Positions 2,817 through 22,066 of a stretch of DNA of 24,000 nucleotides are shown here, one piece after another (the stretch's first letter is position 1; each line of letters begins with the position of its first letter). The stretch is taken from positions 135,496-159,495 of the forward strand of contig CAYFMJ010000002.1 of the NCBI GenBank assembly GCA_964344235.1. Reading direction: 5' to 3'. Under the pieces are notes generated by a model. It saw only the letters and a program-made list of their open reading frames with translations, was not told the origin of the DNA and did no database searches. This DNA comes from an uncultured Methanosarcinales archaeon (lineage in GTDB: Archaea > Nanobdellota > Nanobdellia > Woesearchaeales > GW2011-AR9). Position numbers and translations under genes: made by a program.

Positions 2817-4397
2817 ATGTTTGGTAAACTTAAGGATAAGTTAAAAGGGGCGTTGAATGTTTTTTCTAAGAAGACTGAGGAAGAAGCAGTTGATATTCCA
2901 GAAGAAGAGTTAGAGAAGGTAGAAGAAGTTTCTGAAGAAGTACCGGAAGAGAAACCTGAGCCTGTACAGGAAAAAATTCCAACAGCTGAAGATCTTGTTA
3001 AAGAAACAAAAGAGAAGTTTTCTAAACCCAGGAAAGTTGAGAAGAAAAAAGTTATGGCGCAGGATGTGGTGGATGACAAGCCTGCGAAGAAACCAGTGAA
3101 GAATATTCCAAAGGAAATTGAGAAAGAGAAGGTTGTTGAAACGGTTGAGGAAACTGTAAAAGAAGAAGAGCCAGTTATTGAAGAAGCGAAAGAGGAGCCT
3201 GTTGAATCAGAAGAAAAGATTGTTGAAGAGGTAAAGTCTGAGGAGAAAGAAGAGCCTATCACTGAAGAGAAGACCGAGGAACCGAAAGAAGAGTCGTCTG
3301 GGTTTTTTGGAAAAGTAAAATCGTTCTTTGGAAAGAAAGATGAAGAAGTTGAAGAAACAAAAGAAGGTGTTGATAAAGAATTACAGAAAGAATCCACGGA
3401 AGAAAAGCCAGCAGCAGAATCAAAAGAAGTAACGAAATCAGAAGAAACAGCCGAAGAAATCAAAGAAGAAAAAACAGAAGAGCCAGAAGCTGTTGAAGAA
3501 GTAAAAGAGGAAGAACCAGAGAAGAAAGGGTTCTTTGGGAAAGTAAAAGAATCACTAACAACGAAAAAGATTACGGCAGATAAATTTGAGAGTTTATTCT
3601 GGGAGTTAGAAGTTGTATTATTAGAAAATAATGTTTCTGTAGAAGTTATTGAGAAAATTAAAGAGGATTTGAAAGAAGAGTTAGTTGACAAACCACTCCC
3701 ACGAGACGTTCTTGGAAAGATTAACGATACACTACAGAAAACGTTGAATGATATTCTAGAATTTGAAACTGTTGATCTACTCAAAAATATTGAAGCGAAA
3801 GAAGGGCCGTATGTTGTTGCGTTGTTTGGCATTAACGGTGCAGGGAAAACGACTTCAATAGCTAAGTTAACGCATTATCTCAAAGAAAATGGCAAGTCTG
3901 TGGTGTTAGCAGCATGTGATACTTTTAGGGCAGCAGCAATTCAACAATTAGGAGAGCATGCAGAACGATTAGATGTGAAGATGATTAAGCATGATTATGG
4001 TTCTGATTCAGCGGCAGTTGCGTATGATGCAATTAAGTATGCTGAGAAAAATAATGTTGATGTTGTGTTAATTGATACAGCAGGGAGATTGCATAGTAAT
4101 ACAAACTTAATGGCGGAATTGGAGAAGATAATTAGAGTAACGAATCCAGATTTGAAAATTTTTGTTGGCGAATCAATTACAGGAAATGATTGTGTTGAAC
4201 AAGCGAGAAAGTTTAATGAGTTAGTGCAGATGGATGGTGCTATTCTAACGAAAGCAGATGTTGATGAGAAAGGGGGAGCACCTCTTTCAATTTCGTATGT
4301 GATTGGAAAGCCGATTTTATTTCTAGGAGTGGGTCAGGAGTATAAAGATTTAGAGAAATTCGACAAAGAGAAGATGTTAACGAGATTAGGGTTTTAA
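2817..4397 (+). CDS. ftsY: signal recognition particle receptor FtsY with long acidic E/K-rich N-terminal domain
   Basis: SRP-GTPase motifs 'GINGAGKTTSIAKL' (G1), 'DTAGR' (G3) and 'TKADVDEKGG' (G4). I prefer the ATG at 2817 (MFGKLKDKLKG) over the in-frame GTG at 2811 that overlaps the pfdA stop. Confidence 0.9.
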   Translation: MFGKLKDKLKGALNVFSKKTEEEAVDIPEEELEKVEEVSEEVPEEKPEPVQEKIPTAEDLVKETKEKFSKPRKVEKKKVMAQDVVDDKPAKKPVKNIPKEIEKEKVVETVEETVKEEEPVIEEAKEEPVESEEKIVEEVKSEEKEEPITEEKTEEPKEESSGFFGKVKSFFGKKDEEVEETKEGVDKELQKESTEEKPAAESKEVTKSEETAEEIKEEKTEEPEAVEEVKEEEPEKKGFFGKVKESLTTKKITADKFESLFWELEVVLLENNVSVEVIEKIKEDLKEELVDKPLPRDVLGKINDTLQKTLNDILEFETVDLLKNIEAKEGPYVVALFGINGAGKTTSIAKLTHYLKENGKSVVLAACDTFRAAAIQQLGEHAERLDVKMIKHDYGSDSAAVAYDAIKYAEKNNVDVVLIDTAGRLHSNTNLMAELEKIIRVTNPDLKIFVGESITGNDCVEQARKFNELVQMDGAILTKADVDEKGGAPLSISYVIGKPILFLGVGQEYKDLEKFDKEKMLTRLGF

Positions 4398-5749
4398 GCT
4401 GCTTCTTTGAAGAATTGGTCATAGATTTGACTCACAGCTTCATATCCTCGGTCTCTATCTACTGTAAGAACAAGACAGGGGCTGTTAAAACCCTTCTGAT
4501 GAGCTCTCACTTTTATGTTTGCGTCATCTAAGTGTAGAAGTGTGTTTGCGATGTCTCTTTGACTTAGACCCTGGCCAGCTACTACAATGACTCCCACATC
4601 ATCAATAACTCTGACTGCGTCTTCAGGAAGGTACCCTTCATGTCCCCTGCGAACTTGGTCTAGGATTCTGTGCTTAACTCTTGTAACTTCATTAACGCCA
4701 GATAACTCCTCGCGGTCAAAAACAAATGATGTGTCATCAACGCCCGAGAAAGCAAATTGTAGTGACCTGTCTTCTCTTTCTTCATTTTGGTATCTAGCTG
4801 CATCTAACACTCTTCTAACAACTCCTGCACTATCGTTTAAGCCAAAAGCGCTATTGTGATATACAACTAAGTCCTCTCGGTATCCAATCCCAACGACAGG
4901 ATGTCCTGGCTTTGATAATCTATCGCTTACTACATAGGTGCCTTCTTCAGGGAATTGATTTGTTCCTCTTATGTGAACGGGGATTGGTGTTCCTTCTAAT
5001 GGTGTGATTGCTTCTGGGTTGATGATTTCCATTCCGGAATAAGAAAGAATTCTCATCTCTAAACGAGTTATCTCTCTGACTATATCCGTTCCCGCTAATA
5101 TCTTCGGGTGAACGACACGTAGTGGGCCGTCTGTAAAGTTTTCATAAACATCAACATCAAGGCCTCGTGAAATAACTCCGCCGCTTTTGTCTGATCCTCC
5201 GAAAGTGAATGTGGCCAGTTCTCCACCAATTCCTCCATAAAAGCCAGGGAAGACGAGTGTCGCTTTTTCATCTCTTAATCTTGCAAGTCTTTCGTAGGTC
5301 TCTGAGGTTACTCTTGCTTTATCAAAAGAACCCCCCAACACGAGGAATTCAAGTGGGTCGATAAATTGACCGTCAATTTCTTCTGCAAATAATCGTGCTT
5401 GCCATTCTTCTCCGAACGCTTTGAGTGCAGCTAAATACCTCGCTTCTGGAAGTTTACTTTCGAAACGTTCTGTTAAAGACTGTTTAACTCTATCCGCACT
5501 TCCAGGGTAGATTTCTTCATAACGGCCAACGATTTTGTTGATGGTTATTCTCGCTGCAGCACTGTCTGATCTTTCCCCTGCTAATCTAACAAGAAGTTTT
5601 GTGACTCTGATATCGTCATCATAACGGCTCCCAGGTGCGGAGAGAACAACGTATTGAATGCCTCCCTCGCTCATAACCTCTGCAACTTTTAATATTTTTT
5701 TTCTTGTTGCGGTTGAAGTTCCACCGAATTTAGCGAGTTTCCGTGTCAT
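4394..5749 (-). CDS. aspartate kinase-like amino-acid kinase with C-terminal ACT-like domain (diverged)
   Basis: 'KFGGTS', 'VVLSAPGSRYDDD', 'TFGGSDKSG' and 'VYENFTDGP' correspond to the KFGGTS / VVSAPGKR / SRGGSD / YENFTDVDG blocks of the monofunctional aspartokinase class. The C-terminus 'VGVIVVAGQGL...IKVRAHQKGFNSPCLVLTVD' looks like an ACT domain. R is more frequent than K, unlike the core genes. Confidence 0.65.
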   Translation of the reverse strand: MTRKLAKFGGTSTATRKKILKVAEVMSEGGIQYVVLSAPGSRYDDDIRVTKLLVRLAGERSDSAAARITINKIVGRYEEIYPGSADRVKQSLTERFESKLPEARYLAALKAFGEEWQARLFAEEIDGQFIDPLEFLVLGGSFDKARVTSETYERLARLRDEKATLVFPGFYGGIGGELATFTFGGSDKSGGVISRGLDVDVYENFTDGPLRVVHPKILAGTDIVREITRLEMRILSYSGMEIINPEAITPLEGTPIPVHIRGTNQFPEEGTYVVSDRLSKPGHPVVGIGYREDLVVYHNSAFGLNDSAGVVRRVLDAARYQNEEREDRSLQFAFSGVDDTSFVFDREELSGVNEVTRVKHRILDQVRRGHEGYLPEDAVRVIDDVGVIVVAGQGLSQRDIANTLLHLDDANIKVRAHQKGFNSPCLVLTVDRDRGYEAVSQIYDQFFKEAA

Positions 5750-5775
5750 TTTGTGTCAGTTTACGTTATTCTTAT

Positions 5776-6546
5776 TTAAACTTGTTTTCTGTAACGTGGT
5801 TCTGGTTGGTTAGTGGCTGTTTTCTGAGCTTCGAATCTTTCGTATGCATCTCCAAGCCAAAGGATTAATTCCACTCCCATTGGTGCTCTGGAATCAACTC
5901 CGTATGTTGCTTGAAGATATTCGAAGCAGTCTTGGCTTGGTTTCTTGAATACGGGACAACCTCTTGCTTTACCGTGACCAAGTCTCTTGGCAACTTCCAT
6001 GTCTAAGCCTTTTGGCGAATCCCTATCAATTAAATCTATGTCAACAGGGTCCATATATGTTGGGCCTTCCATAACTCCAATAGCAGCTTTTGTTGCTCCG
6101 AGATGAGACAAACTTACATGTCCAAGGGTGGCTGTGGCCGTTAGATATTTTCTGGGTTCGCGAGCGTAGGTTTCTTTGAGTTTTAATGCCACTCTAACTG
6201 CAGTGAGGAGCCCTTTTTCCCCTATTGTTCTCAAAGTTGGAAACCCATGGGGAACTGCAACACGGCAATATGGGGAGGTTCGTACAACCAAGTCTACTTC
6301 TCGTATTTTTTTATCAACGTATGTGGCGTGGTCTTGTTTGGTTATGAATTTCCACCAGGTCTGCACCATAGATGCTTCTAAAATTTCTCTTAGGCTTGTT
6401 CTGCTTTCTTTTGGAATTGGTTCCTGGCCGTTAACTGCAAGTTTATGTTCTTCCCACCAAATTCTAAATACATCGGTTAAACCTTGTTCATATGCTCTAA
6501 ACCCAGCGGTTTGTTGTGTTGCGATGCTTGCATCGATTGAACCCAT
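5776..6546 (-). CDS. hypothetical protein (256 aa), first gene of a two-gene unit with the aspartokinase-like gene
   Basis: Intact ORF with a leaderless-type TATA 25 nt upstream and a 26-nt spacer to the downstream gene. No family recognised. Contains two HxS/Tx tetrapeptides (HATY at residue 73, HVSL at residue 143), which is only a weak cue. Confidence 0.5.
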   Translation of the reverse strand: MGSIDASIATQQTAGFRAYEQGLTDVFRIWWEEHKLAVNGQEPIPKESRTSLREILEASMVQTWWKFITKQDHATYVDKKIREVDLVVRTSPYCRVAVPHGFPTLRTIGEKGLLTAVRVALKLKETYAREPRKYLTATATLGHVSLSHLGATKAAIGVMEGPTYMDPVDIDLIDRDSPKGLDMEVAKRLGHGKARGCPVFKKPSQDCFEYLQATYGVDSRAPMGVELILWLGDAYERFEAQKTATNQPEPRYRKQV

Positions 6547-6754: not shown

Positions 6755-6793
6755 CAATTTCTTAGAATATTTTTGTTCATCAAAGGGGTTGAG

Positions 6794-7738
6794 ATGAACA
6801 AAAAATATCACTTCGAAATTGAACAAATTCTTGAGCTAGCAGATTTGTATGAGCTGGGAGTTCCTTTGAGAACCATTGCAAAAATTCATGGAATGAACTC
6901 TGCTACTCTTTGGCATAGACTCAAAAAGTATGAAGAACAAGAATTATTTCAGTTTAGGTCACGCTCTGAAACAGTCTTAATGACCTTGTCGAAGAGTAGA
7001 ACTAGCCCAAAAGGAGAAAAAACCAAGCGAGTTAAGGATTGGTTTAAGAATTTTGGAAGAGAAGGGATACTAGATATTCTTACTGTGTTTCTTCTTGTTG
7101 AAGCCTCAGCTGATTATAAGTATGGAATGATAAGACTGACTAATTCTGATGAAACACTACTTCAAATATTTACAGACATACTCTTATTACTTAACTTGGA
7201 ACCAAGACAAACAATCGATTCGAGAAATAATTTGCGAGTTGTTTTTAGTAGGAATTCTAGAACTCGGAAAGTGTTAGATGAAATTTATGTAAGAACTCCC
7301 ACTACCAAACACCAACCACGGAGGGGCACCGAAAATTGGGAAATGTATTTGAAGACAACGCAACCCAATTTGCTTTGGTTGTATGGTCGATCGAGAAAAT
7401 TAATTGAACTGTGTTTTCGAATCGCAATGTCCTGTGATGGTTCCGTTTTTAGGAGCAGGGGTATTAAGCATCTCCCCGATAGACCACAATTAACCCTAGT
7501 CTGTTTTCATCCGCTATTACTTTTACAATGGAAAGAGATAGCTAGCCTAATTGGACTCAACATGAATATCTCGGGGAAAAGAATTCGATCCAGGAGTATC
7601 GAAACTTCACGCAAATTTTTAAAAATGGGTGCCTTTTTAGAAGGTGTGAGGATATCCTCCAAAGGATCAAAACAATTTCGGGGAATAGAGAAAAATACCC
7701 GGTTGAATGATTTATTGAATACATATGATTTAAGATGA
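6794..7738 (+). CDS. LAGLIDADG-family homing endonuclease-like protein with N-terminal HTH; first motif degenerate
   Basis: The HTH is 'ILELADLYELGVPLRTIAKIHGMNSATLWHRLKKY'. 'LTVFLLVEASADYKYGMIRLTNSDETLLQIFTDIL' aligns with 'LIAHLIGDGCAYK...NIKYDITDPELLQQFVDDL' of the clear LAGLIDADG ORF at 12596-13336. The second motif is 'CFRIAMSCDGSV'. An alternative start is the TTG at 6773. The stop overlaps the next gene's start (ATGA). Confidence 0.65.
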   Translation: MNKKYHFEIEQILELADLYELGVPLRTIAKIHGMNSATLWHRLKKYEEQELFQFRSRSETVLMTLSKSRTSPKGEKTKRVKDWFKNFGREGILDILTVFLLVEASADYKYGMIRLTNSDETLLQIFTDILLLLNLEPRQTIDSRNNLRVVFSRNSRTRKVLDEIYVRTPTTKHQPRRGTENWEMYLKTTQPNLLWLYGRSRKLIELCFRIAMSCDGSVFRSRGIKHLPDRPQLTLVCFHPLLLLQWKEIASLIGLNMNISGKRIRSRSIETSRKFLKMGAFLEGVRISSKGSKQFRGIEKNTRLNDLLNTYDLR

Positions 7739-9015
7739 CAAATGTATATTTTTTTACACAGGGATGTAGTGCTAATGTTGCTGACTCAGAACAGATGGCA
7801 GGATTACTGGAGCAAGCTAAATTTAGCATAGTTAACAGAATTCAAGAAGCACATGTTATTGTTATGAATTCGTGTTCAGTTAAATCACCTTCTGAATCTA
7901 TGTTTTTCAAAACTTTGGAACAATTTAAGCAAGAACATCCGCATAAATTAATTGTGGTGGCTGGATGTATCCCAGAGGCTGATCCACGGAAGTTTAAAGA
8001 GTATTCAGTTGTTGGTACACAAAGCATTCATCATATCGTGCAGGTAGTGGAAGAAACACTGAATGATAATGTTTTACAGATTCTAGGAAATGAAGAAGTG
8101 CCACCATTGGATATGCCGAAAGTGCGAAAGAATCCTGTTGTAGAAATTATTCCAATTAATAGAGGTTGTTTGGGAGCATGTACATTTTGTAAAACGAAAC
8201 AAGCACGGGGGAATTTGATCTCTTACTCTGTTGATGAAATAGTTGATGTTGCTCAAAAAGCGTTATCAGAAGGAGTGAAAGAGATTTGGTTAACTTCACA
8301 GGATACATTTTGTTACGGTTTTGATATTGGGACAGATATTGTGGAGTTGCTCAATGAGTTGGTTAAGTTAGATGGTGATTTCTTTATTCGTGTGGGAATG
8401 GGTAACCCAGATCATATGCCGAAAGTGCAGGAGGGGTTAATTGAGGTGTATAAACATCCGAAGATTTTCAAGTTTTTGCATTTACCATTACAAGCAGGTC
8501 ATAATTATACTCTGCAGCAGATGCGTCGGAGGTATACAGTGCAGCAATTTAGAGATACAGTCGATGCATTTAGGAAAGCGATTCCTGAAATTAATTTGAT
8601 GACTGATATTATTGTGGGGTATCCAACAGAAAATGAAGATCATTTCTGGGGAACGTTGCAAGCTGTTAGACGAGTAACGCCAGATTCAATTAATATTTCA
8701 CGGTTCTGGCCACGGCCAGGTACGCCTGCTGCTGAATTAAAACCGTTAGATGGTGGAGAGGTAAAGAAACGATCAACAGTGATAACAGATATTTTTCATA
8801 ATATATCTACCCTGCAAAATGAACGATGGAAAGGTTGGGAAGGTTCTGTGTTAATTGATGAGAAAGGAAAGGATGGTCAATGGATTGGTCGGAATTATTG
8901 TTATAAACCAGTGATTGTTGAAGGGGATTTTAATTTAGGTGATTCAGTTAAAGTTCGGATTGTGAAAACTGGATTATTTGATTTACGGGGGGAAGTAGTG
9001 AATGGTACAGCGTGA
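7735..9015 (+). CDS. mtaB: archaeal-type (MtaB/CDKAL1-like) radical-SAM tRNA methylthiotransferase
   Basis: N-terminal MTTase domain cysteines (GCSANVADSE, NSCSVK, VAGCIPE), radical-SAM 'CLGACTFC' (CxxxCxxC) and a C-terminal TRAM-like segment 'GSVLIDEKG...VKVRIVKTGLFDLRGEVV'. Confidence 0.85.
   Translation: MTNVYFFTQGCSANVADSEQMAGLLEQAKFSIVNRIQEAHVIVMNSCSVKSPSESMFFKTLEQFKQEHPHKLIVVAGCIPEADPRKFKEYSVVGTQSIHHIVQVVEETLNDNVLQILGNEEVPPLDMPKVRKNPVVEIIPINRGCLGACTFCKTKQARGNLISYSVDEIVDVAQKALSEGVKEIWLTSQDTFCYGFDIGTDIVELLNELVKLDGDFFIRVGMGNPDHMPKVQEGLIEVYKHPKIFKFLHLPLQAGHNYTLQQMRRRYTVQQFRDTVDAFRKAIPEINLMTDIIVGYPTENEDHFWGTLQAVRRVTPDSINISRFWPRPGTPAAELKPLDGGEVKKRSTVITDIFHNISTLQNERWKGWEGSVLIDEKGKDGQWIGRNYCYKPVIVEGDFNLGDSVKVRIVKTGLFDLRGEVVNGTA
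7762..7797 (+). repeat. right copy of the 36-nt imperfect direct repeat (inside the intact gene)
   Basis: See the left copy. Homology ends at the same codon (Met21). Confidence 0.8.
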
Positions 9016-9395: not shown

Positions 9396-11141
9396 ATGAA
9401 TGCAAAAGAGTTACGGGAGAAGTATTTTAATTTCTTTAAGGAGAAAGGACATGCTATTATTCCCTCAGCATCATTAATTCCAATGAATGATGCGTCAGTA
9501 TTATTCAACACAGCAGGAATGCAACCACTTGTTCCGTATTTGATGGGAAATGTTCATCCTGCCGGCAAAAGATTAGTTAATTTACAGAAATGTTTACGAA
9601 CGGTTGACTTTGAAAATATTGGAGATAATACGCACCATACGTTTTTCCAGATGTTAGGGAATTGGTCACTAGGGGATTATTTTAAGAAAGATACGATCGC
9701 CTGGAGTTTTGAATTCTTAACAGAAGTGTTGCAATTACCCTTAAACATGCTGGCGTTTACTGTGTATAAAGGTGATGACGTTGTGCCTGCGGATGAGGAA
9801 GCGGCACAGTTCTGGGAAGCGCATGGAGTTCCTAGAAAAAGAATTGCATTTTTAGGGAAAGATAACTTCTGGTCGGCTGGTGAGACGGGTCCATGTGGTC
9901 CATCAACAGAGATGTTTTATTGGACGGGTAAAGGAGAAGCGCCAGAGGAGTTTGATGCAGAGGATGAGCAGTGGGTGGAGATTTGGAATGATGTATTTAT
10001 GACGTATAATCGGGATGACAAGGGTAATCTGTCTCCATTACAACAAAAGAACGTCGATACAGGAATGGGTTTTGAAAGGGCATTAGCAGTGTTGAATGGG
10101 AAAGAGAGTGCATATGAAACGTCGTTATTTGCTGGTGCGATTCTCAAGTTAACAGAGTTAAGTGGAAGAAACTATGCGGACTGCAAGAAAGAGATGCGCA
10201 TTGTTGTTGACCATTTACGAGCAGCAGTGTTTGTGTTAGGTGATGAGAATGGTGTTGTGCCGTCAAATGTTGATAGGGGATATATTTTACGACGATTGAT
10301 TCGAAGAGCGATTCGGTTTGCCAAACAGATTGGTATTGATGAAATGTTCACTGCTGAGATTAGCAAGATCTTCATTGCAGAGTATGGTGAGTATTATACG
10401 GAGTTAGAGAAGAATAAAGAAAAGATTATTGGTGAGTTACAGAAAGAGGAACAGAAATTTGCATTGACGTTAGAGAAGGGATTGCGTGTGTTTGAGAAGT
10501 TAGCTGCGCAAGCAGATGTTATTTCTGGAAAAGATGCGTTCTTATTATTCCAATCATATGGTTTTCCATTAGAGATGACGCAGGAGTTAGCAATGGAACA
10601 GGGAATTAGTGTTGATGAAGCTGTGTTTAAAGAAGAATATGAAAAACACCAGGGCTTATCTCGAACAGCATCTGCAGGGAAGTTTAAAGGCGGCTTAGCA
10701 GATAATTCCCCTGAAACAACTCGGTTACATACAGCTACTCACTTATTGGCTGAGGCGTTACGAAGAGTGTTAGGTTCTGAGGTTAAGCAGCGAGGTTCGA
10801 ATATTACGCCTGAAAGACTGCGGTTTGATTTTACATTTGATAGAAAGTTAACGCCGGAAGAGATTAAAGCAGTTGAAGATGAAGTGAATAAAGTTATTGA
10901 TTCTCATGTTGAAGTTAGGCGAGTAGAGATGACGAAAGAGGAAGCAGTGAGGTTAGGTGCACAAATGGAGTTCGGTGCAAAGTATCCAGACAGAGTGAGC
11001 GTCTATTTTGTTGGTGAGTATTCTAAAGAATTTTGTGGTGGACCGCACGTAAAGAATACGTCTGAGATTGGACATTTTAAAATTGTGAAAGAGAAAAGTT
11101 CTTCTGGTGGTGTGAGACGGATTAAGGCTGTTTTGGAGTAA
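9396..11141 (+). CDS. alaS: alanyl-tRNA synthetase, bacterial-type catalytic and editing domains, short form lacking the C-terminal C-Ala region
   Basis: 'LFNTAGMQPLVPY', 'QKCLRTVDFENIGDNTHHTFFQMLGNWSLGDYFK' (class II AlaRS core), and editing-domain 'HTATHLL' (HxxxH) and 'CGGPHV' (CxxxH). The protein ends about 35 aa after CGGPHV, at 581 aa in total. Confidence 0.85.
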   Translation: MNAKELREKYFNFFKEKGHAIIPSASLIPMNDASVLFNTAGMQPLVPYLMGNVHPAGKRLVNLQKCLRTVDFENIGDNTHHTFFQMLGNWSLGDYFKKDTIAWSFEFLTEVLQLPLNMLAFTVYKGDDVVPADEEAAQFWEAHGVPRKRIAFLGKDNFWSAGETGPCGPSTEMFYWTGKGEAPEEFDAEDEQWVEIWNDVFMTYNRDDKGNLSPLQQKNVDTGMGFERALAVLNGKESAYETSLFAGAILKLTELSGRNYADCKKEMRIVVDHLRAAVFVLGDENGVVPSNVDRGYILRRLIRRAIRFAKQIGIDEMFTAEISKIFIAEYGEYYTELEKNKEKIIGELQKEEQKFALTLEKGLRVFEKLAAQADVISGKDAFLLFQSYGFPLEMTQELAMEQGISVDEAVFKEEYEKHQGLSRTASAGKFKGGLADNSPETTRLHTATHLLAEALRRVLGSEVKQRGSNITPERLRFDFTFDRKLTPEEIKAVEDEVNKVIDSHVEVRRVEMTKEEAVRLGAQMEFGAKYPDRVSVYFVGEYSKEFCGGPHVKNTSEIGHFKIVKEKSSSGGVRRIKAVLE

Positions 11142-11764: not shown

Positions 11765-11796
11765 TGTGTAAAAGTAAATGAATGCGCGGGCCGGGA

Positions 11797-11828
11797 CTTT
11801 CCAAAACACTGTTTTTTACAATGTAATA
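11797..11828 (-). other. tRNA-Gly intron 2 (32 nt, T-loop 59/60)
   Basis: It interrupts TTCAAG|T between T-stem halves CCGGG and CCCGG. It has an internal 7-bp helix ACATTGT/ACAGTGT. The BHB is relaxed, with only 3 of 4 central pairs. Confidence 0.65.
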
Positions 11829-11849
11829 CTTGAACCCGGGTCACAGCGT

Positions 11850-11863
11850 CTTTGCTGAAGCAA
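11850..11863 (-). other. tRNA-Gly intron 1 (14 nt, canonical 37/38)
   Basis: Bulge-helix-bulge (BHB) fold: central helix TTGC/GCAA, 5' bulge CA|T, 3' bulge AG|A adjacent to the anticodon stem. Confidence 0.7.
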
Positions 11864-11925
11864 TGGCAACGCCGTATACTAACCACTATACTACCCACGC
11901 ACAACCTCTCAAAGAAAATATGTTC

Positions 11926-11933
11926 TTAATAAA
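11926..11933 (-). promoter_or_regulatory. TATA box for tRNA-Gly (minus strand agtaaag-tttattaa)
   Basis: Centre is about 29 nt upstream of tRNA position 1. The same BRE/TATA string occurs in the rps12 promoter (cagtaaag-tttataaa). Confidence 0.5.
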
Positions 11934-11945
11934 CTTTACTAATCA

Positions 11946-11970
11946 GAAAAATAAAAGAAAGAAAAAAAAG
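11946..11970 (-). terminator. oligo-T tract terminator after the membrane-protein gene
   Basis: The minus strand reads cttttttttctttcttttattttt immediately after the stop at 11977. Archaeal RNAP terminates at T runs. Confidence 0.45.
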
Positions 11971-11976
11971 ATACTC

Positions 11977-12354
11977 TTAGTTTCGTGCTAGGCCAAACAC
12001 AGCTCGTAATGCAACGATAATTGTCGCTGGTACGAATAGTGTTAAAATTCCTCGCAAGATGTTGCCAATCATTGGTGCAACTGCATCAAATACTCCTACT
12101 TGGACCCCCAAGAAAGAGACTAATACTAACACCGTCCCACTGGTTAAGAAACCGGATGCTTCATTGTGGGAGACATTTAGCAGACCTACTACGACACCTA
12201 ATAGGAATACAACCCATAACATTGTTGCTTGGTATGGTCCTGTAAAACCTAATCCGAGAAGTACTGCTAAGACAACACCAACGAGAAATGCCCAACTCCC
12301 TACTAGATGTGCGTTACTCCGCCGTGGAGCTGCTGCTCTTCGTCTTTTTGCCAT
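11977..12354 (-). CDS. small integral membrane protein (125 aa, 3-4 predicted TM helices)
   Basis: The basic N-terminus MAKRRRAAAPRR is followed by long hydrophobic G/V/L-rich stretches. A GGTGA Shine-Dalgarno-like motif lies about 7 nt upstream of the ATG. Confidence 0.55.
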   Translation of the reverse strand: MAKRRRAAAPRRSNAHLVGSWAFLVGVVLAVLLGLGFTGPYQATMLWVVFLLGVVVGLLNVSHNEASGFLTSGTVLVLVSFLGVQVGVFDAVAPMIGNILRGILTLFVPATIIVALRAVFGLARN

Positions 12355-12471
12355 TTAACTATCACCTCTTTTTTTTAAGGGTCCTATGACGGGTTCCCTT
12401 ATAGTTTCCTACTATTATTTTTTTATTTATATGTCTTTTGTTTTTTATCCGTCTATTTTTATAGCAAAAAC

Positions 12472-12479
12472 TTAATAAA
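12472..12479 (+). promoter_or_regulatory. TATA box (ttaataaa) for the intron-rich tRNA
   Basis: Centre is about 27 nt upstream of tRNA position 1 (12503), so transcription should start at or within a few nt of the mature 5' end. Confidence 0.5.
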
Positions 12480-12541
12480 AGGGTTAGCGGTTTTCTGTGT
12501 ATCCCCTCTTAGTTTAGCTTGGCTAGAACGCTCCGCTGTGT

Positions 12542-12627
12542 GTTCTTAGGAAACTGAGAACAGGCGAGAGATAAGTTCACTGTTGGACTAAGCCTTTAGG
12601 GCTCTGGATGAAATACAGCCAGTGGGG
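12542..12627 (+). other. tRNA intron 1 (about 86 nt, at or next to 37/38)
   Basis: The central helix CTGT/GTGG and 3-nt bulges (GT|G and GG|A) are placed exactly as in tRNA-Asp of this window. The intron starts with an 8-bp hairpin tgttctta-ggaaac-tgagaaca. No inner BHB helix was found, so the motif is relaxed. Confidence 0.5.
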
Positions 12628-13336
12628 ACGGAGAGACATCTTCGGATGCTTCAAATCCCCGGTTCAAATCCGGGAGAGGGGACTCCGAAGGCAGGGTGTG
12701 CGTTCTCACCCTTGCCTTCACATATTTTTCAATTTTTTCTTGTTTTCTAACACAATAAAAACCAATTTCTTTGTAGAACTTTTCTATGTCTTTGATCACA
12801 ATTGCGAAAACATTTCTTTTTGCACCAAATCCCGATTTAATAGTGTTCTCTATTCCGAATTCAGAGATCATTTTTTGTACTTGTTTTAGGCCTTTGAAAT
12901 TGATTGAGTAGAGTCTTAAAATTAATCTTCTTCCTTCTGGGATTACACTCCCCTCGTCGTCGTATAGGGCTTTTAAGAACTCACGCTTGATGCTTTTACT
13001 AGCTTCTATAATTTCTTTTGGAACGGTCCAAGTCCTAGAGAAGTAATCACAGTAACTCTTAAGATCTTCATATGCTAATTTTGACCTAACTCTTGCGTAA
13101 GGAAGAAGCTTGCCCGTTTTTCCGGATGGCTTGAGTGCAACAACCGGTTTTAGCCCATAAACATTGTCTAAGTCATCAACAAACTGTTGTAGTAATTCTG
13201 GGTCTGTGATGTCATATTTAATGTTGTAATCAGTTCGGCACTTGTAAGCACAACCATCGCCAATCAAGTGAGCGATTAGCCTTGCTTTAGCTTCTGTTAA
13301 CTCTTTGAAGCCGGGTTTTAGTCTCTTGATTCTCAT
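12596..13336 (-). CDS. LAGLIDADG homing endonuclease (double-motif), free-standing, with about 35-aa C-terminal read-through tail antisense to the tRNA
   Basis: Motifs 'LIAHLIGDGCA' and 'FLKALYDDEGSV' are about 100 aa apart. A TATA-like ttataaatattaaaatt lies upstream on the minus strand. After about residue 210 the ORF runs through the terminator hairpin and tRNA exons 3 and 2, and stops inside tRNA intron 1. Confidence 0.8.
   Translation of the reverse strand: MRIKRLKPGFKELTEAKARLIAHLIGDGCAYKCRTDYNIKYDITDPELLQQFVDDLDNVYGLKPVVALKPSGKTGKLLPYARVRSKLAYEDLKSYCDYFSRTWTVPKEIIEASKSIKREFLKALYDDEGSVIPEGRRLILRLYSINFKGLKQVQKMISEFGIENTIKSGFGAKRNVFAIVIKDIEKFYKEIGFYCVRKQEKIEKYVKARVRTHTLPSESPLPDLNRGFEASEDVSPSPLAVFHPEP
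12636..12654 (+). other. tRNA intron 2 (19 nt, variable region about 45/46) with near-canonical BHB
   Basis: Outer helix GGGGA(12624-28)/TCCCC(12656-60), 3-nt bulge AAA, central 4-bp helix GGAG/CTTC, 3-nt bulge AGA, inner helix CATC-(TTCG)-GATG. Removal leaves a 5-nt variable loop AGATC. Confidence 0.55.
12687..12740 (+). terminator. stem-loop plus T-tracts directly after the tRNA
   Basis: gaaggcagggtg (12687-98) pairs with cacccttgccttc (12707-19), with one bulged base. It is followed by catatttttcaatttttt. It lies inside the 3' tail of the antisense HEG ORF. Confidence 0.4.
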
Positions 13337-13413
13337 ACTTGAATCTTGAATTTTAATATTTATAATTTCTATTAGTACTTGTCTAGTGGGTTGTGACTAC
13401 ACTTTCAAAACAC

Positions 13414-13421
13414 TTAATAAA
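13414..13421 (+). promoter_or_regulatory. TATA box (ttaataaa, preceded by caaaacac) for the HAD gene
   Basis: Centre is about 24 nt upstream of the GTG start at 13442. Confidence 0.5.
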
Positions 13422-13441
13422 TCGAGTAACTTGTCCATTCT

Positions 13442-14080
13442 GTGAAATACAAACTAATCATTTTTGACATGGACGGAGTTATCTTTCGAGATGTTAATTT
13501 TTGGTTAAGGGTGCATGAAGTATTTGGTACGTTAGAAAAAGGTAAAGTTCTGACAAAACAATATTTACATTCTGATTACGCAAAGCTTGTTGAGGAAGTT
13601 GTTGTAAAGTTATGGAAAGATAAAGATGCAACACCATACTTTGAGCTTGTTAATTCGTTAGAGTATTTACCTGGTGTAAAAGAAGTATTTGAATTTATTA
13701 AAAAACAGGATTTATTGACGGCAATTGTCTCCGCTTCTAGCATTGATGTAGCACGGAGAGTGCAAAAGGATTTTGGGGTGGACCATTTATTTGCGAATGA
13801 ATTGGTGATTCGGGAGAATCGTGTTACAGGAGAGTTTTTATGGCCGATTGCGCAGGGAAATGAGAAAAAAGCTGAGATTATTCGTCATCTCTGTCAAGAT
13901 CTAGGAATAAAGCCAGAAGAAGTTGTCTATGTGGGTGATTCTGATAAAGATATTGAAGCGTTTAAGGAAGTAGGATTGTCGGTAGCGTTTAATTCAGATT
14001 GTGAGGAGTTGAAAGCTGTGGCGACGCATATTGTGGATAGTGATAATTTAGCAGATGTTCTTCCATATATTGCAAAATAA
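13442..14080 (+). CDS. HAD-superfamily phosphatase (phosphoserine phosphatase-like, subfamily IB-like)
   Basis: Motif I 'IIFDMDGVI' (DxDG), motif II 'AIVSASS', and motifs III/IV 'K......VGDSDKDIEAFKEVG'. GTG start. Confidence 0.75.
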   Translation: MKYKLIIFDMDGVIFRDVNFWLRVHEVFGTLEKGKVLTKQYLHSDYAKLVEEVVVKLWKDKDATPYFELVNSLEYLPGVKEVFEFIKKQDLLTAIVSASSIDVARRVQKDFGVDHLFANELVIRENRVTGEFLWPIAQGNEKKAEIIRHLCQDLGIKPEEVVYVGDSDKDIEAFKEVGLSVAFNSDCEELKAVATHIVDSDNLADVLPYIAK

Positions 14081-14255
14081 CCATTAAAATAGCTGTTTAT
14101 TCGGGAATTCACCGATAGCTTTATAAACAAACCGCAGTTTTACCTCAAAAATGGCCGGGGATATTCTATAATTTAGCGACAAAGAGAGCTAGATCGTGGA
14201 ATGTCCTGCATAATTGCCCTGGTAGTGTAGCTCGGCCTAGCATGTTGCCCTGTCG

Positions 14256-14280
14256 GAAACTTTTTCGGAAGTTTGTGGAT
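14256..14280 (+). other. tRNA-Asp intron 1 (25 nt, 37/38)
   Basis: BHB fold: central CTGT/GTGG, bulges CG|G and AT|A, inner 6-bp helix AAACTT/AAGTTT. Confidence 0.75.
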
Positions 14281-14301
14281 AGGCAACGACCCGGGTTCAA
14301 A

Positions 14302-14333
14302 ACGTGAGGTGTTGAATCAACTCATGCTGAATG
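14302..14333 (+). other. tRNA-Asp intron 2 (32 nt, T-loop 59/60)
   Basis: BHB fold: outer helix is the T stem, central TTCA/TGAA, bulges AA|A and TG|T, inner helix CGTGAG/CTCATG. Confidence 0.75.
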
Positions 14334-14360
14334 TCCCGGCCAGGGCGTTTCAAGAAGCGA

Positions 14361-14382
14361 GCGAACATGGCAACATGTTCGC
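14361..14382 (+). other. perfect 9-bp hairpin in the 42-nt tRNA-Asp/tRNA-Lys spacer
   Basis: gcgaacatg-gcaa-catgttcgc. Confidence 0.6.
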
Positions 14383-14389
14383 AAGTCTC

Positions 14390-14506
14390 GGGCCGGTAGC
14401 TTAGCTTGGTAGAGCGCCTGACTTTTAGCAAAAAACAGGAGTTTTTTGAAACTTCCTGCCGAAAGTAATCAGGCGGTCGCGAGTTCAAATCTCGTCCGGC
14501 CCACCA
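14390..14506 (+). tRNA. tRNA-Lys(UUU) with one 40-nt intron at 37/38 and an encoded CCA
   Basis: Acceptor GGGCCGG/CCGGCCC, D arm GCTT-AGCTTGGTA-GAGC, anticodon stem CCTGA/TCAGG, spliced loop CTTTTAA, variable CGGTC, T arm GCGAG-TTCAAAT-CTCGT, A73, CCA at 14504-14506. Confidence 0.9.
14428..14467 (+). other. tRNA-Lys intron (40 nt, 37/38)
   Basis: BHB fold: central CTTT/AAAG, bulges TA|G and TA|A, internal helix CAGGA/TCCTG. Confidence 0.75.
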
Positions 14507-14515
14507 CTTTCCAAA

Positions 14516-14749
14516 ATGACAGACGTATCAAAACACATCCTCGTACCGAAACATACGAAAGTTTCCGACTCTGAGAAAGAAAAGATCTGTCAAGAATATA
14601 ATGTTGAGGCAGCTCAGTTACCGAAGATTTCTATTGATGATCCTGCTTTAGAGAAGCTTGATGTTAAGCCAGGTGATGTTGTTAAGATTGAAAGACAAAG
14701 CGTGACTGCAGGGAAAGCAGCATATTATCGCTTGGTGGTGGGTGCATAA
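14516..14749 (+). CDS. rpoH: DNA-directed RNA polymerase subunit H (Rpo5)
   Basis: 77 aa. 'HILVPKHTKVSDSEKEKI...LPKISIDDPALEKLDVKPGDVVKIER.S.TAG...YYRLVV' matches the RpoH/Rpb5 C-terminal domain. It is first in the canonical operon. Confidence 0.9.
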   Translation: MTDVSKHILVPKHTKVSDSEKEKICQEYNVEAAQLPKISIDDPALEKLDVKPGDVVKIERQSVTAGKAAYYRLVVGA

Positions 14750-16224
14750 TGGATCAGTCAATTCTCGTAAAGAAGTACTTTGAGGAAAACAAGTTTGTAG
14801 AAAGTAATATTCAATCATTTAATGCGTTTATTGAGAAAGGGTTGCAGGAAGTTATCGAGGAGAATAAAGAGGCAGAGCCAACAATTATCCCCCATAACAT
14901 TGAAAGTTTTAAGATTAGATTTGGCAGAATTACTGTAGGAAAACCAGAGATTACAGAAGCTGATGGAAGTAAGAGACCAATTTACCCGATGGAAGCGCGG
15001 TTACGAAAAATCACCTACCATGCGCCTATCTTCTTAGAAGTGAGCACATATATTAACGATGTGCAGCGAGAGAACTTCGTGGCAGAGGTTGGAAAGATGC
15101 CAATTATGTTACGGTCCAAGTTTTGTAATTTAGATGGCTTAAGCAATGAAGATCTTGTAAAGAAAGGGGAAGACGCAACTGACCCTGGTGGATATTTCAT
15201 TATTAACGGAACAGAGAGGGCGATTGTTAATGTTGAAGATTTAGCTGCAAATAATTTTGTTGTTGAATTGAATTCTTCAAAAGATTTTGTTGGACGATTC
15301 TTTGCATCACAGGGCTCATATAAAATTCCACACTCATTTGAGAAGAAGAAAGACGGTATCTATTACATGACATTTACACGTGTTAAACAGATGCCTGTTG
15401 TTATTGTTCTAAAAGCATTAGGATTAGTGCGTGATGAAGATATCATGAAAGCAATCTCAACGAAGAAAAATTACGATGAAATTATTGTGAATTTATTTGA
15501 GTTTGTTAATATCAAAACACAGGAAGAAGCGATTGATTACATCAGTAAGAGAATTGGTATTACGCAGGCAAAAGAAATCCGAATGGAACGAACCAAAGAT
15601 ACACTTGACAAATATTTATTACCGAACATTGGTATGGACTCAAGCTTACGGGCAGAGAAAGCACGTAACATTTGTAAGATGTTGAAGAAGTTCATTGATG
15701 TGAGTAATGGAACGCTTCCTGCTGACGATAAAGATCATTACATGAATAAGAGAGTTAGATTGAGTGGAGATTTATTATTGGACTTGTTTAGGGTTAATTT
15801 TAAAGTGCTAGTTGGAGACATTTTATACAACTTCCAACGAATCATTAAGCGAGGAAAACTTCCTAGTATTCGAGTTATTATCCGGGATAAGTTGTTAACG
15901 TCACGATTATATTCCTCAATGGCAACCGGAGAATGGGTTGGTGGAAGACAGGGTATCTCTCAGAGAATGGATCGAACGAACTTCTTAGGAATGGTTTCTC
16001 ATTTACAGAGAGTTGTGAGTCCATTATCAAGTGCACAGGAGAATTTCGAAGCAAGAGCGTTACATTGTACGCATGTTGGAAGATTATGCCCGATTGAAAC
16101 TCCAGAGGGAACAAATATTGGTTTACGGAAAAACTTAGCTATGCTTTGTTCATTATCACAGGAAGTTGATGGCAAAGAAGTTTTGGAAAAAATGAAAGAA
16201 ATTGGTCTACAGGAGGCTCACTAG
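14749..16224 (+). CDS. rpoB2: DNA-directed RNA polymerase subunit B'' (N-terminal half of split RpoB)
   Basis: 491 aa with N-terminal 'SNIQSFNAFIEKGLQEVI' and 'DPGGYFIINGTERAIV'. Its position is between rpoH and B'. The start overlaps the rpoH stop (TAATG). Confidence 0.92.
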   Translation: MDQSILVKKYFEENKFVESNIQSFNAFIEKGLQEVIEENKEAEPTIIPHNIESFKIRFGRITVGKPEITEADGSKRPIYPMEARLRKITYHAPIFLEVSTYINDVQRENFVAEVGKMPIMLRSKFCNLDGLSNEDLVKKGEDATDPGGYFIINGTERAIVNVEDLAANNFVVELNSSKDFVGRFFASQGSYKIPHSFEKKKDGIYYMTFTRVKQMPVVIVLKALGLVRDEDIMKAISTKKNYDEIIVNLFEFVNIKTQEEAIDYISKRIGITQAKEIRMERTKDTLDKYLLPNIGMDSSLRAEKARNICKMLKKFIDVSNGTLPADDKDHYMNKRVRLSGDLLLDLFRVNFKVLVGDILYNFQRIIKRGKLPSIRVIIRDKLLTSRLYSSMATGEWVGGRQGISQRMDRTNFLGMVSHLQRVVSPLSSAQENFEARALHCTHVGRLCPIETPEGTNIGLRKNLAMLCSLSQEVDGKEVLEKMKEIGLQEAH

Positions 16225-21778: not shown

Positions 21779-22066
21779 ATGGCAAAGCGAAAAGAAGTTG
21801 ATGAACAATCAAAAGAATTGAAAGGATTTGTACAGGGTAAGAAAGTTGTCTATGGAACTGATCAGGTTATGAAAGGCCTGAAAGCGAAGTCGCTTGTGAA
21901 AGTGTATGTTGCAAGTAATACTCGTCAGGATGTTCGTGAAGACATTGCACATTATGCTAATTTGGCAGGGATTCCTGTCGTTGAGTTAGGTTTTGACAAC
22001 GAGGAACTTGGTGTTTTCTGTAAGAAGAATTTCTTTGTTTCTGTTCTTGGCGTGATTGGTGCGTAA
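21779..22066 (+). CDS. rpl30e: 50S ribosomal protein L30e
   Basis: 95 aa with 'KSLVKVYVASN...IAHYANLAGIPVVELGFDNEELGVFCKKNFFVSVLGV'. Canonical position after rpoA''. Confidence 0.85.
   Translation: MAKRKEVDEQSKELKGFVQGKKVVYGTDQVMKGLKAKSLVKVYVASNTRQDVREDIAHYANLAGIPVVELGFDNEELGVFCKKNFFVSVLGVIGA

Follow-up and report, generated by a model that had tools for sequence, protein, structure and literature searches.

The four tRNA genes of the window (the whole stretch of DNA that was analysed, 24 kb of a metagenome contig from a tiny-genome archaeon of the Woesearchaeota/DPANN lineage with ~40% G+C) are very probably tRNA-Gly(GCC), tRNA-Tyr(GUA), tRNA-Asp(GUC) and tRNA-Lys(UUU), carrying between them eight protein-spliced BHB introns that would be cut by an EndA splicing endonuclease most likely of the α type. 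The introns were located at 35/36 (one), 37/38 (four), 45/46 (one) and 59/60 (two). Every gene was interrupted, as the first-pass annotation had claimed (Table 1; for tRNA-Lys over 14390-14503), and no fifth tRNA candidate was found elsewhere in the 24-kb window. The two T-loop introns at 59/60 and the one at 45/46 lay where that annotation had placed them, while its total of seven introns became eight because tRNA-Tyr has three and not two. Splicing in silico restored a cloverleaf in which the anticodon loop and the T loop each have 7 nt.

Table 1. Coordinates of the tRNA genes, introns and 2-nt exon in the window, with the BHB score of each intron and its occurrence in orthologous genes.
Feature	Position	Strand	Description	BHB score	Orthologues with intron
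tRNA-Gly(GCC) gene	11783..11900	-	exons 11900-11864, 11849-11829, 11796-11783; ARAGORN tRNA-Gly(gcc) after splicing
Gly intron 1 (14 nt, 37/38)	11850..11863	-	strict BHB, central helix TTGC/GCAA	4/4 pairs, 4 Watson-Crick, h=7, h'=2	16/25
Gly intron 2 (32 nt, 59/60, T loop)	11797..11828	-	relaxed BHB, 3/4 central pairs TTCA/GGAA; outer helix = T stem		7/25
tRNA-Tyr(GUA) gene	12503..12682	+	exons 12503-12539, 12569-12570, 12628-12635, 12655-12682; ARAGORN tRNA-Tyr(gta) after splicing
Tyr intron 1 (29 nt, 35/36, within anticodon)	12540..12568	+	central helix CGCT (nt 30-33)/GGCG, 9-bp intron hairpin	(4,3,2,9)
Tyr micro-exon, 2 nt (A36 G37)	12569..12570	+	delimited by introns 1 and 2
Tyr intron 2 (57 nt, 37/38)	12571..12627	+	central helix CTGT/GTGG	see text	see text
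Tyr intron 3 (19 nt, 45/46, variable region)	12636..12654	+	HBh' type	(4,3,0,5)
tRNA-Asp(GUC) gene	14216..14347	+	exons 14216-14255, 14281-14301, 14334-14347; ARAGORN tRNA-Asp(gtc) after splicing
Asp intron 1 (25 nt, 37/38)	14256..14280	+	central helix CTGT/GTGG (one G-C, three G-U), 8-bp intron helix	(4,1,7,8)	45/63
Asp intron 2 (32 nt, 59/60)	14302..14333	+	central helix TTCA (nt 54-57)/TGAA, outer helix = T stem	(4,4,5,0)	51/63
tRNA-Lys(UUU) gene	14390..14506	+	exons 14390-14427, 14468-14503; CCA encoded at 14504-14506
Lys intron (40 nt, 37/38)	14428..14467	+	central helix CTTT/AAAG	(4,4,7,1)	54/68 (absent in 5)

The BHB motif was taken as a 4-bp helix flanked by two 3-nt bulges that contain the splice sites, with strict (hBHBh') and relaxed (hBH or HBh') forms. 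The four central pairs were formed in exact register at seven of the eight junctions, and three of the four at Gly intron 2. Three of the introns had strict motifs and five had relaxed motifs by our criteria, which count strictly adjacent helix pairs only, so that some motifs scored here as relaxed may be canonical to others. The relaxed motifs were those of Gly intron 2, with its three central pairs, Tyr intron 3, which has no exon-side helix, and the Lys intron, Asp intron 2 and Tyr intron 2, in which the adjacent intron-side helix is short or missing. G-U pairs predominated in the central helices of Asp intron 1 and Tyr intron 2. The chance of a strict BHB at a given site pair was ~4e-5 (119 of ~2.9 million pairs on the + strand), and the junction demanded by the cloverleaf was the top BHB of the whole precursor for Gly intron 1, Asp intron 1, Asp intron 2 and the Lys intron, with 4,000-6,000 site pairs per precursor. 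The register proposed previously, a central helix of nucleotides 32-35 with 3-nt bulges cut past the second base, was shared by Gly intron 1, Asp intron 1 and the Lys intron, and also fits the Tyr 37/38 intron provided that the upstream 35/36 intron is removed first. The precursor fold would place both splice sites in 3-nt bulges flanking a 4-bp helix and, going by established archaeal tRNA splicing, EndA would cleave both bulges and a RtcB-type ligase would join the exons, with the intron released, usually in circular form.

ARAGORN in default mode made no tRNA call in the window, and the Rfam tRNA model matched only the Lys gene even at E<=10, giving 58.4 bits with a 41-nt insert (ARAGORN tRNA-Lys(ttt)). 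The Gly and Asp genes were detected by ARAGORN only once the T-loop insert had been taken out. All four spliced products were called as canonical tRNAs by ARAGORN. In an ARAGORN intron search, suggested earlier as a check, the unspliced Tyr gene was miscalled as tRNA-His, with a false 24-nt variable arm in place of the 45/46 intron.

The tRNA-Tyr gene and its divided anticodon

The gene that the first-pass annotation had described as His-like was assigned to tRNA-Tyr(GUA), with an intron at 35/36 that splits the anticodon. Excision of this intron gives the anticodon GTA and collinearity with the relatives, and 33 of 33 syntenic orthologues contain CTGTAG, corresponding to the same anticodon. 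The apparent 86-nt anticodon insert was resolved into a 29-nt intron, a 2-nt exon and a 57-nt intron, the 2-nt exon being required by the loop CUGUAGA found in all relatives. A homologue of the first intron was identified at the same site in one relative (L025), where it is 28 nt long, forms a BHB at that length only, and has a central helix of GGCT/AGCC that is compensatory relative to that of the window. This split of the anticodon causes gene finders to mistake the tyrosine tRNA for a histidine tRNA.

The identity set of archaeal tRNA-Tyr consists of the GUA anticodon, the C1-G72 pair and the discriminator A73, while tRNA-His has a GUG anticodon and an extra G-1 opposite C73, which is either encoded or added after transcription. 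The spliced Tyr sequence contains C1-G72 and A73, with a T at position -1. It is very improbable that 12503-12682 is instead a tRNA-His(GUG) gene with one 86-nt anticodon-loop intron and a second intron or long variable arm, even though ARAGORN gives tRNA-His(gtg) with an 86-nt intron and the canonical register of this insert (a=39, b=126) also yields a BHB of (4,1,5,1). The histidine assignment implies U37 or else an off-register junction, and GTG is obtained only by counting the intron's first base as position 36; G-1 is not encoded, position 73 is A, and C1-G72 with A73 is the archaeal Tyr set. The exons of one relative (L032) are identical to the Tyr exons of the window except at position 36, the syntenic orthologues are all Tyr, and the 35/36 intron has a 9-bp hairpin, is bounded by a strong BHB and is shared with L025.

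With the gene read as tRNA-Tyr, nucleotides 32-33 of the precursor are common to the 35/36 and 37/38 motifs. The 37/38 motif scored (4,1,5,1) with intron 1 removed and (2,2,1,1) with intron 1 in place, and so forms only after the 35/36 intron has been removed, suggesting that splicing at this site is probably sequential. The exon A36 G37 would be ligated between the two excisions, requiring two ligations just two nucleotides apart; no precedent for a 2-nt exon was found in the literature searched. The central helix of intron 3 (GGAG/CTTC) recruits the 3' side of the anticodon stem and the intron itself forms the hairpin CATC-TTCG-GATG; introns at 45/46 were also found in L058 and L038.

The Tyr 37/38 intron was present in 33 of 33 relatives, with a length of 48-61 nt, a covariation-supported structure and a kink-turn-like hairpin that is conserved in the clade. 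The 3' segment of the intron pairs with nucleotides 30-34 of the anticodon arm, leaving U35 and A36 unpaired, and the kink-turn-like motif sits 6-7 bp above the bulge holding U35. The intron contains a single C'/D'-like pair, in which AUGA is invariant and GA is positioned 0-2 nt past stem a in 28 of 29 sequences, and the tails beyond CAGCC vary from 3 to 9 nt. No family in Rfam matched this conserved intron. A box C/D guide RNA contains C, D, C' and D' boxes, and its guide sequence stops 5 nt upstream of box D or D'. In a box H/ACA guide RNA the pseudouridylation pocket is flanked by two stems, the upper of which has a kink-turn, and the ACA box is ~14 nt away from the targeted U. The intron was rejected as a canonical box C/D guide, given its single C'/D'-like pair and the absence of a conserved terminal C or D box, and as a canonical H/ACA guide, given the variable tail without an ACA at a fixed distance and the absence of a separate 5' guide strand.

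Introns in the orthologous genes of relatives

The orthologue set comprised 189 genes upstream of rpoH from ~70 Woesearchaeota/Nanoarchaeia genomes (Gly 25, Tyr 33, Asp 63 and Lys 68). These contained 293 introns, with 0-3 in each gene, giving 1.55 introns per gene. The intron density, earlier considered unusual, is therefore high in absolute terms yet typical of the clade. The exons of the orthologues were near-identical, while the inserts were present, absent or variable in length (10-130 nt) and recurred at 37/38, 59/60, 15-23 in the D arm, 43-46 and 53/54. Uninterrupted alleles exist for Gly, Asp and Lys. Intronless Gly orthologues were found in 7 of 25 relatives, an example being L052 8811-8882 with 64 bits against the Rfam tRNA model, and the spliced Asp sequence gave 74/75 identity to the intronless orthologues of L052 and L008, the L052 copy scoring 56 bits with the same model.

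That these genes are pseudogenes in decay or have been hit by small mobile-element insertions, with working uninterrupted copies elsewhere, is scarcely credible. The view is limited to 24 kb of the genome and two nearby LAGLIDADG endonuclease-like genes indicate mobile DNA in the region, but the exons are undamaged, with up to 99% identity to uninterrupted orthologues, and the inserts all occupy recurrent positions and lie within BHB-type motifs. Upstream of rpoH, where the locus is conserved, ~70 genomes share the interrupted arrangement, and small genomes such as these usually contain one gene per tRNA; in a 2026 preprint on Nanobdellota the median is 35 tRNAs per genome. The mature tRNA sequences given here are those predicted by removing the inserts.

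Split tRNA genes were not seen at these four loci; a 2026 survey of 208 Nanobdellota genomes put undetected tRNAs down to possible split genes. Kaneta et al. (2018) included one Woesearchaeota genome and described a larger number of disrupted tRNA genes, along with tRNA sets that were not fully predictable (PMC5829648). There appears to be no earlier description of the locus-by-locus intron landscape over ~70 genomes.

The splicing endonuclease

Judged from the proteins of relatives, the enzyme of the clade is most likely a single-gene α-type EndA resembling the α4 enzyme of M. jannaschii. The hallmarks of (αβ)2 and ε2 enzymes are an α and β gene pair or a three-unit protein of ~395 aa, together with a specificity loop near the catalytic His. 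The EndAs named Woesearchaeota or Nanoarchaeota were single α units of 170-222 aa. The best 120 matches to a DPANN EndA profile, Woesearchaeota-named proteins included, consisted without exception of single-unit proteins (170-269 aa), none with the three-unit ε architecture. The clade EndA profile aligned gap-free to MjEndA (α4) and did not contain the insertions that N. equitans α and ARMAN-2 ε2 have beside the catalytic His, and no second EndA-like ORF was found within 10 kb of the EndA genes examined.

These single α units do not bear out the heterotetrameric or ε2 endonuclease predicted in the first-pass annotation, and the premise that a non-canonical position needs a broad enzyme also requires amendment, as in the literature it is the relaxed motif that matters and only five of the eight motifs are relaxed by our criteria. 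It is an unlikely alternative, though less so than the two above, that the introns are real but cut by an (αβ)2 or ε2 endonuclease. N. equitans, which belongs to the same GTDB phylum as Woesearchaeales, has an (αβ)2 enzyme, and a β subunit may be too diverged for detection. Published biochemistry ties relaxed BHB motifs to (αβ)2 or ε2 enzymes (PMC5829648, PMC4033280), and α4 enzymes are reported not to cut them (PMC5829648). The single-unit matches, the gap-free alignment without insertions before the catalytic His and the absence of a further EndA-like ORF nearby argue against such an enzyme, as does the report by Kaneta et al. (2018, PMC5829648) of α4-type EndA, carrying a loop they term L3, in several DPANN lineages where disrupted tRNA genes are more numerous. 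If the enzyme is of the α type, as preferred here, the relaxed motifs suggest that the EndA of this clade tolerates such motifs.

Comparison with known systems

The Tyr 37/38 intron resembles systems in which an intron or a guide RNA directs modification within the anticodon loop, namely eukaryotic tRNA-Tyr (pseudouridine-35), pre-tRNA-Tyr of the Sulfolobales (an H/ACA sRNA) and euryarchaeal tRNA-Trp (a box C/D intron). The likeness lies in a tRNA-Tyr intron kept in every genome examined, in its pairing with the anticodon arm that leaves U35 and A36 free, and in its kink-turn-like motif (PMC2651775). In C/D and H/ACA RNPs, motifs of this kind serve as L7Ae binding sites (PMC2651775). In contrast to these modification systems, the intron has neither a box D nor a fixed-distance ACA.

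ARMAN-1/2, with ε2 EndA, and N. equitans, with (αβ)2 EndA and both split and intron-containing tRNAs, are likewise small-genome DPANN archaea with multiple and non-canonical tRNA introns. The clade EndA differs from theirs in being a single α unit without either type of insertion, and unlike the split tRNAs of N. equitans none of the genes at these four loci is split.

The Thermoproteales (Crenarchaeota), such as Pyrobaculum calidifontis, likewise have BHB introns at 37/38 and at non-canonical positions, among them 20/21, 22/23, 45/46 and 59/60, with up to three introns per gene and closely spaced introns removed in succession; their record genome has 1.54 introns per gene, compared to 1.55 at these four loci (PMC4090602, PMC8450103). 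The present host is instead a DPANN woesearchaeote of ~40% G+C, and the Thermoproteales enzyme is an (αβ)2 EndA with a crenarchaeal specific loop, while the clade EndA is α4-like and lacks the loop. The 35/36 anticodon intron with its 2-nt exon is a further difference, position 35/36 being missing from the list in PMC4090602, which ends 'etc.'. The phenomenon itself is already known, and the present loci add a new and dense case of it.

Interrupted tRNA genes of the window and their relatives

The inserts proposed for the tRNA genes in the first-pass annotation were excised. ARAGORN classed the spliced products as canonical tRNAs for Gly(gcc), Asp(gtc) and Lys(ttt), the first two only after removal of the T-loop insert. 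Independently of the cloverleaf, each 5'/3' site pair of every precursor was scored for a bulge-helix-bulge (BHB) splicing motif, defined as a central helix H of 4 bp with two bulges of 3 nt, each cut after its second base, plus an exon-side helix h and an intron-side helix h'. For the first Gly intron, both Asp introns and the Lys intron, the top motif among 4,000–6,000 site pairs was the junction required by the cloverleaf. Of about 2.9 million plus-strand site pairs in the whole window, 119 had four Watson-Crick central pairs with h ≥ 5, a chance rate of about 4e-5, and the coincidence of motif and junction is far beyond this. The Gly intron at 59/60 had three of the four central pairs, the Tyr intron at 45/46 was an HBh' motif with a central helix that uses the 3' strand of the anticodon stem, and by our criteria five of the eight motifs in the window were relaxed. 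The two 32-nt introns at 59/60 were compared by eye for a sign of intron transposition and showed no mutual sequence similarity.

The mature sequences were then aligned in a splice-aware manner to 80 related loci and the junctions refined by BHB score, which yielded 25 orthologues of Gly, 33 of Tyr, 63 of Asp and 68 of Lys, most of them in one cluster just upstream of rpoH. The exons of these orthologues were near-identical, while inserts of 10–130 nt were present or absent by genome at a few recurrent positions. Introns at 37/38 were found in 16 of 25 Gly, 45 of 63 Asp, 54 of 68 Lys and, in this splice-aware tally, 32 of 33 Tyr genes, and introns at 59/60 in 7, 51, 26 and 17 of the same sets, respectively; the D arm (15–23), 43–46 and 53/54 were the other recurrent positions. 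Uninterrupted alleles were present in seven genomes for Gly and in five each for Asp and Lys. In one relative, L052, the Rfam tRNA model detected the whole cluster, with uninterrupted Gly, Asp and Lys genes scoring 64, 56 and 72 bits, and the Asp gene was identical at 74 of 75 positions to the doubly spliced Asp of the window. As judged from these alignments, the pattern of presence and absence is that expected of introns and not of pseudogenes or of insertions kept in the RNA. Together with the canonical spliced products and the junction motifs, this upholds the original reading of the inserts, which are real BHB introns.

Some relatives had three introns (D loop, 37/38 and T loop) in Asp or Lys; example loci are L058 (1179–1409), L077 (366–644), L069 (4726–4953) and L076 (9566–9722). 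The longest single intron, of 130 nt, was in the Asp gene of locus L042, and D-arm introns at about 19–23 recurred in Lys and Gly of more distant relatives. Among the four window genes an encoded CCA end (14504–14506) was present in Lys and absent from Gly, Tyr and Asp.

Detection of the unspliced genes by standard software was incomplete. ARAGORN in default mode found no tRNA in the window, and the Rfam tRNA model, at its gathering threshold, found Lys(UUU) alone (14390–14503, with a 41-nt insert) and nothing further at E ≤ 10. The intron search of ARAGORN called Lys correctly and added a 'tRNA-His(gtg)' at 12503–12683 with an 86-nt intron and a 24-nt variable arm, which is a miscalled tRNA-Tyr as described below; Gly and Asp were undetected by both programs in unspliced form. 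These misses are not evidence against the genes, because the models cannot bridge T-loop or multiple inserts. To our knowledge, DPANN genomes were not included in the training of the tRNAscan-SE intron models. No fifth tRNA was found in the window, where T-arm-like matches at 5353 and 20313 lay in coding regions and lacked an acceptor stem. Three of the four genes were thus missed or given the wrong amino-acid identity by standard tools. A 2026 survey covering 208 complete Nanobdellota genomes reported 'missing' tRNAs and speculated on split genes; multi-intron genes such as these explain the gaps more simply, and they influence how complete a genome is judged to be and what coding capacity it is credited with.

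A tRNA-Tyr gene with an intron inside the anticodon

The gene originally described as His-like was reassigned by comparison with its orthologues, all of which read CTGTAG, giving the anticodon GTA, where the window reads CTGTGT. C1-G72 and A73 form the archaeal tRNA-Tyr identity set, while tRNA-His needs G-1 and C73; the window gene has C1-G72 and A73, with neither an encoded G-1 nor C73. Its exons are those of the L032 tRNA-Tyr except at position 36. A strong BHB motif was located inside the supposed 86-nt intron, with the central helix CGCT (nt 30–33)/GGCG, bulges GTG and AGA cut after their second base, and a 9-bp hairpin. Excision of the corresponding 29 nt joined CTGT to AGATAAG in place of the G that follows it in the gene, which brought back GTA and made the gene collinear with its relatives; the product was now called as tRNA-Tyr(gta) by ARAGORN. 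A homologous intron at 35/36 was found in locus L025, where a BHB formed at one length only, 28 nt, with the central helix GGCT/AGCC, a compensatory change relative to the window that tracks position 30. Splicing as His, with introns of 86 and 19 nt, was rejected on the orthologue comparison. On these sequence comparisons the gene is a tRNA-Tyr with three introns, the 86-nt insert consisting of a 29-nt intron, a 2-nt exon and a 57-nt intron, and the count for the window rises from the seven introns first proposed to eight.

Exons (E) and introns (I) of the window tRNA-Tyr gene
Feature	Coordinates	Strand	Description
Tyr E1	12503–12539	+	
Tyr I1	12540–12568	+	35/36, 29 nt
Tyr E2	12569–12570	+	A36 G37
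Tyr I2	12571–12627	+	37/38, 57 nt
Tyr E3	12628–12635	+	
Tyr I3	12636–12654	+	45/46, 19 nt
Tyr E4	12655–12682	+	

The BHB of I2, scored as central pairs, Watson-Crick pairs among them, h and h', changed from (2,2,1,1) to (4,1,5,1) when I1 was taken out of the primary transcript. Because I2 improves in this way and the central helices of I1 and I2 both use nt 32–33, splicing of this transcript is probably ordered. Sequential removal of closely spaced introns has already been described (PMC8450103), and a limited literature search found no report of an intron within an anticodon or of a 2-nt tRNA exon. The window tRNAs are a new, dense case of a known phenomenon, in which two features are worth following up: the conserved kink-turn-like Tyr intron considered in the last section, and this anticodon-splitting intron with its 2-nt exon, an extreme case for ordered splicing and ligation.

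Host lineage, intron density and splicing endonuclease

The window has a G+C content of about 40%, and Pfam matches gave the gene order rpoH, rpoB'', rpoB', rpoA', rpoA'', an L7Ae/L30e-family gene, nusA, rps12 and rps7. RpoH (14516–14749) had an identical copy on a 78-kb metagenome contig in ENA (ERZ930065, project PRJEB17505), and others on shorter contigs of sister samples. Relatives of RpoB'' (14749–16224), 63–84% identical, were found in 80 genome contigs labeled nearly all as Woesearchaeota, Nanoarchaeota or Nanoarchaeia, and because of these labels the host is assigned, from sequence relatedness, to the Woesearchaeota within the DPANN archaea. Records titled 'uncultured Methanosarcinales archaeon' (L008, L010, L013 and others) contained RpoB'' 64–83% identical to that of the window, and since these MAG records also carry the Woesearchaeota-type tRNA cluster, their organism label appears to be wrong.

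Several neighboring genes were noted. Two ORFs resemble LAGLIDADG-type endonucleases, one at 12596–13336 (minus; Pfam LAGLIDADG_3, 6.6e-11) and one at 6773–7738 (plus; a weak Pfam match and an HTH domain), and since the loci of the 80 relatives contained no homologue of either, they look like insertions specific to this lineage. The first adjoins tRNA-Tyr, its final 29 codons overlapping the 3' part of the tRNA gene in antisense orientation, and within this antisense tail, a few bases 3' of the tRNA end, a hairpin of -21 kcal/mol followed by a T-run (12687–12719) looks like a terminator. The alanyl-tRNA synthetase ORF (9396–11141) is just 581 aa, with the catalytic and second additional domains, compared with 870 aa in L088, a Nanoarchaeota-type contig carrying an EndA gene; the window gene may be shortened or split. 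Genes related to tRNA also cluster in the window (39–389, 7735–9015 and 21779–22066), among them a radical-SAM methylthiotransferase of MiaB/CDKAL1 type (UPF0004, Radical_SAM and TRAM) and a wyosine-formation gene (Taw1/TYW1-like), of which the 3' end is present. The L7Ae/L30e-family ORF between rpoA'' and nusA is, from its operon position, probably L30e and not L7Ae proper.

The intron density of the window, 2.0 per gene, had been considered unusual, but it is typical of the clade, in which 293 introns were counted in 189 orthologous genes at the four loci (1.55 per gene). Published values are 0.21 per gene for archaea overall and 0.84 for Thermoproteales, and they reach 1.54 in the record genome, where 46 genes hold 71 introns (PMC8450103). 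The clade therefore looks as intron-rich as Thermoproteales, at four loci that were picked because of the finding and are not a genome-wide sample.

Non-canonical and relaxed introns are generally associated with (alpha-beta)2 or epsilon2 splicing endonucleases (EndA) bearing specificity loops, and an enzyme of one of these types had been predicted for this genome. No EndA was present among the 5,191 ORFs of the window and the loci examined. A search seeded with M. jannaschii EndA (sequence verified against PDB 1a79) retrieved proteins named Nanoarchaeota or Woesearchaeota, of 170–211 aa with both EndA domains, and a profile built from 14 of these found at least 7,971 homologues. The best 120, which included that of Ca. 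Woesearchaeota RBG_13_36_6, were all single units of 170–269 aa. Against the PDB the profile matched the alpha4 enzyme 1a79 best, without gaps, and lacked the insertions found just before the catalytic His in the N. equitans alpha subunit and the ARMAN-2 epsilon2 enzyme. By this comparison epsilon2 appears excluded for the relatives. An undetected beta subunit could still accompany their alpha unit, as an (alpha-beta)2 enzyme would have it, and no second EndA-like ORF was found within 10 kb of the relatives' EndA genes that were fetched. The predicted enzyme type is wrong or at least unsupported, while the kind of element was correctly recognized.

According to Kaneta et al. (2018; PMC5829648), alpha4-type EndAs (with the 'L3 loop') occur in several DPANN lineages whose tRNA genes are disrupted in greater number, and subunit type contributes least to substrate recognition. 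The published rule is that alpha4 enzymes cut strict motifs only (PMC5829648), and an alpha4-like enzyme, if real, would therefore conflict with this rule, given the proportion of relaxed motifs in the window. The clade combines about 1.5 introns per gene at the four loci with an EndA that aligns without gaps to a strict alpha4 enzyme, a combination on which the source of broad specificity can be tested directly by biochemistry. Some clade EndAs (P0095, P0096 and P0099, from Nanoarchaeota/Woesearchaeota MAGs) carry a Lys-rich N-terminal tail of 20–40 residues, which M. jannaschii EndA lacks and which could add non-specific RNA binding, with a bearing on relaxed substrate tolerance.

The conserved tRNA-Tyr 37/38 intron

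Unlike the other introns, the Tyr intron at 37/38 was present in all 33 relatives, its length varying little (48–61 nt; alignment A1, L008–L085). RNAalifold analysis of 30 sequences predicted three helices: a stem a/a', a small hairpin and a helix X. The predicted stem a/a' is 7 bp long, and in up to 14 sequences per pair both bases have changed with the pairing kept; helix X would pair tRNA nt 30–34 with CAGCC in the 3' part of the intron and tracks position 30 (G-C in 23 sequences, C-G in 5). In the predicted fold 96% of cells were paired, and the covariation score was 0.44 compared with 0.19 for shuffles, none of 500 reaching 0.44, and at most 0.12 for slid registers. In 28 of 29 sequences the internal loop between stem a and the hairpin had GA on one strand, 0–2 nt past stem a; the opposite strand carried an invariant AUGA 1–2 nt before stem a', and in this model the two make a box C'/D'-type kink-turn pattern. 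Formation of the predicted helix X competes with that of the anticodon stem and of the central BHB helix and leaves U35 A36 G37 bulged. That helix X is itself the splicing helix was rejected, since in all registers tried by hand either a loop of 8 nt or two of the four central pairs resulted. In the alignment neither a box D nor a fixed-distance ACA box is present, and the intron matched no Rfam family; it is therefore not a canonical C/D or H/ACA guide RNA.

A hypothesis only, and one considered unlikely, is that this intron might be a cis-acting RNP module serving as guide or chaperone. Its kink-turn would bind an L7Ae-family protein, and the 3' CAGCC would dock on nt 30–34 of the anticodon arm, rivalling the anticodon stem and the splicing helix. 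Docking would expose U35 A36 G37 in a bulge where modification could take place (pseudouridine-35, for instance, as in the pre-tRNA-Tyr of eukaryotes and Sulfolobales), after which the RNA would switch to the BHB fold and be spliced. If true, the intron would represent a so far uncatalogued class of intron-borne guide or chaperone, hosted by a clade with a plain alpha4-like EndA and one of the densest known sets of relaxed, non-canonical tRNA introns. The eukaryotic tRNA-Tyr intron, without which pseudouridine-35 is not formed, is one of the closest analogies, and the box C/D intron of euryarchaeal tRNA-Trp is another. The structured Tyr intron, seen in every genome examined, offers an archaeal counterpart to the tRNA-Tyr intron of eukaryotes, which is universally retained. 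A third analogy is the H/ACA sRNA of Sulfolobales, which base-pairs with pre-tRNA-Tyr in both its anticodon arm and its intron (PMC2651775).
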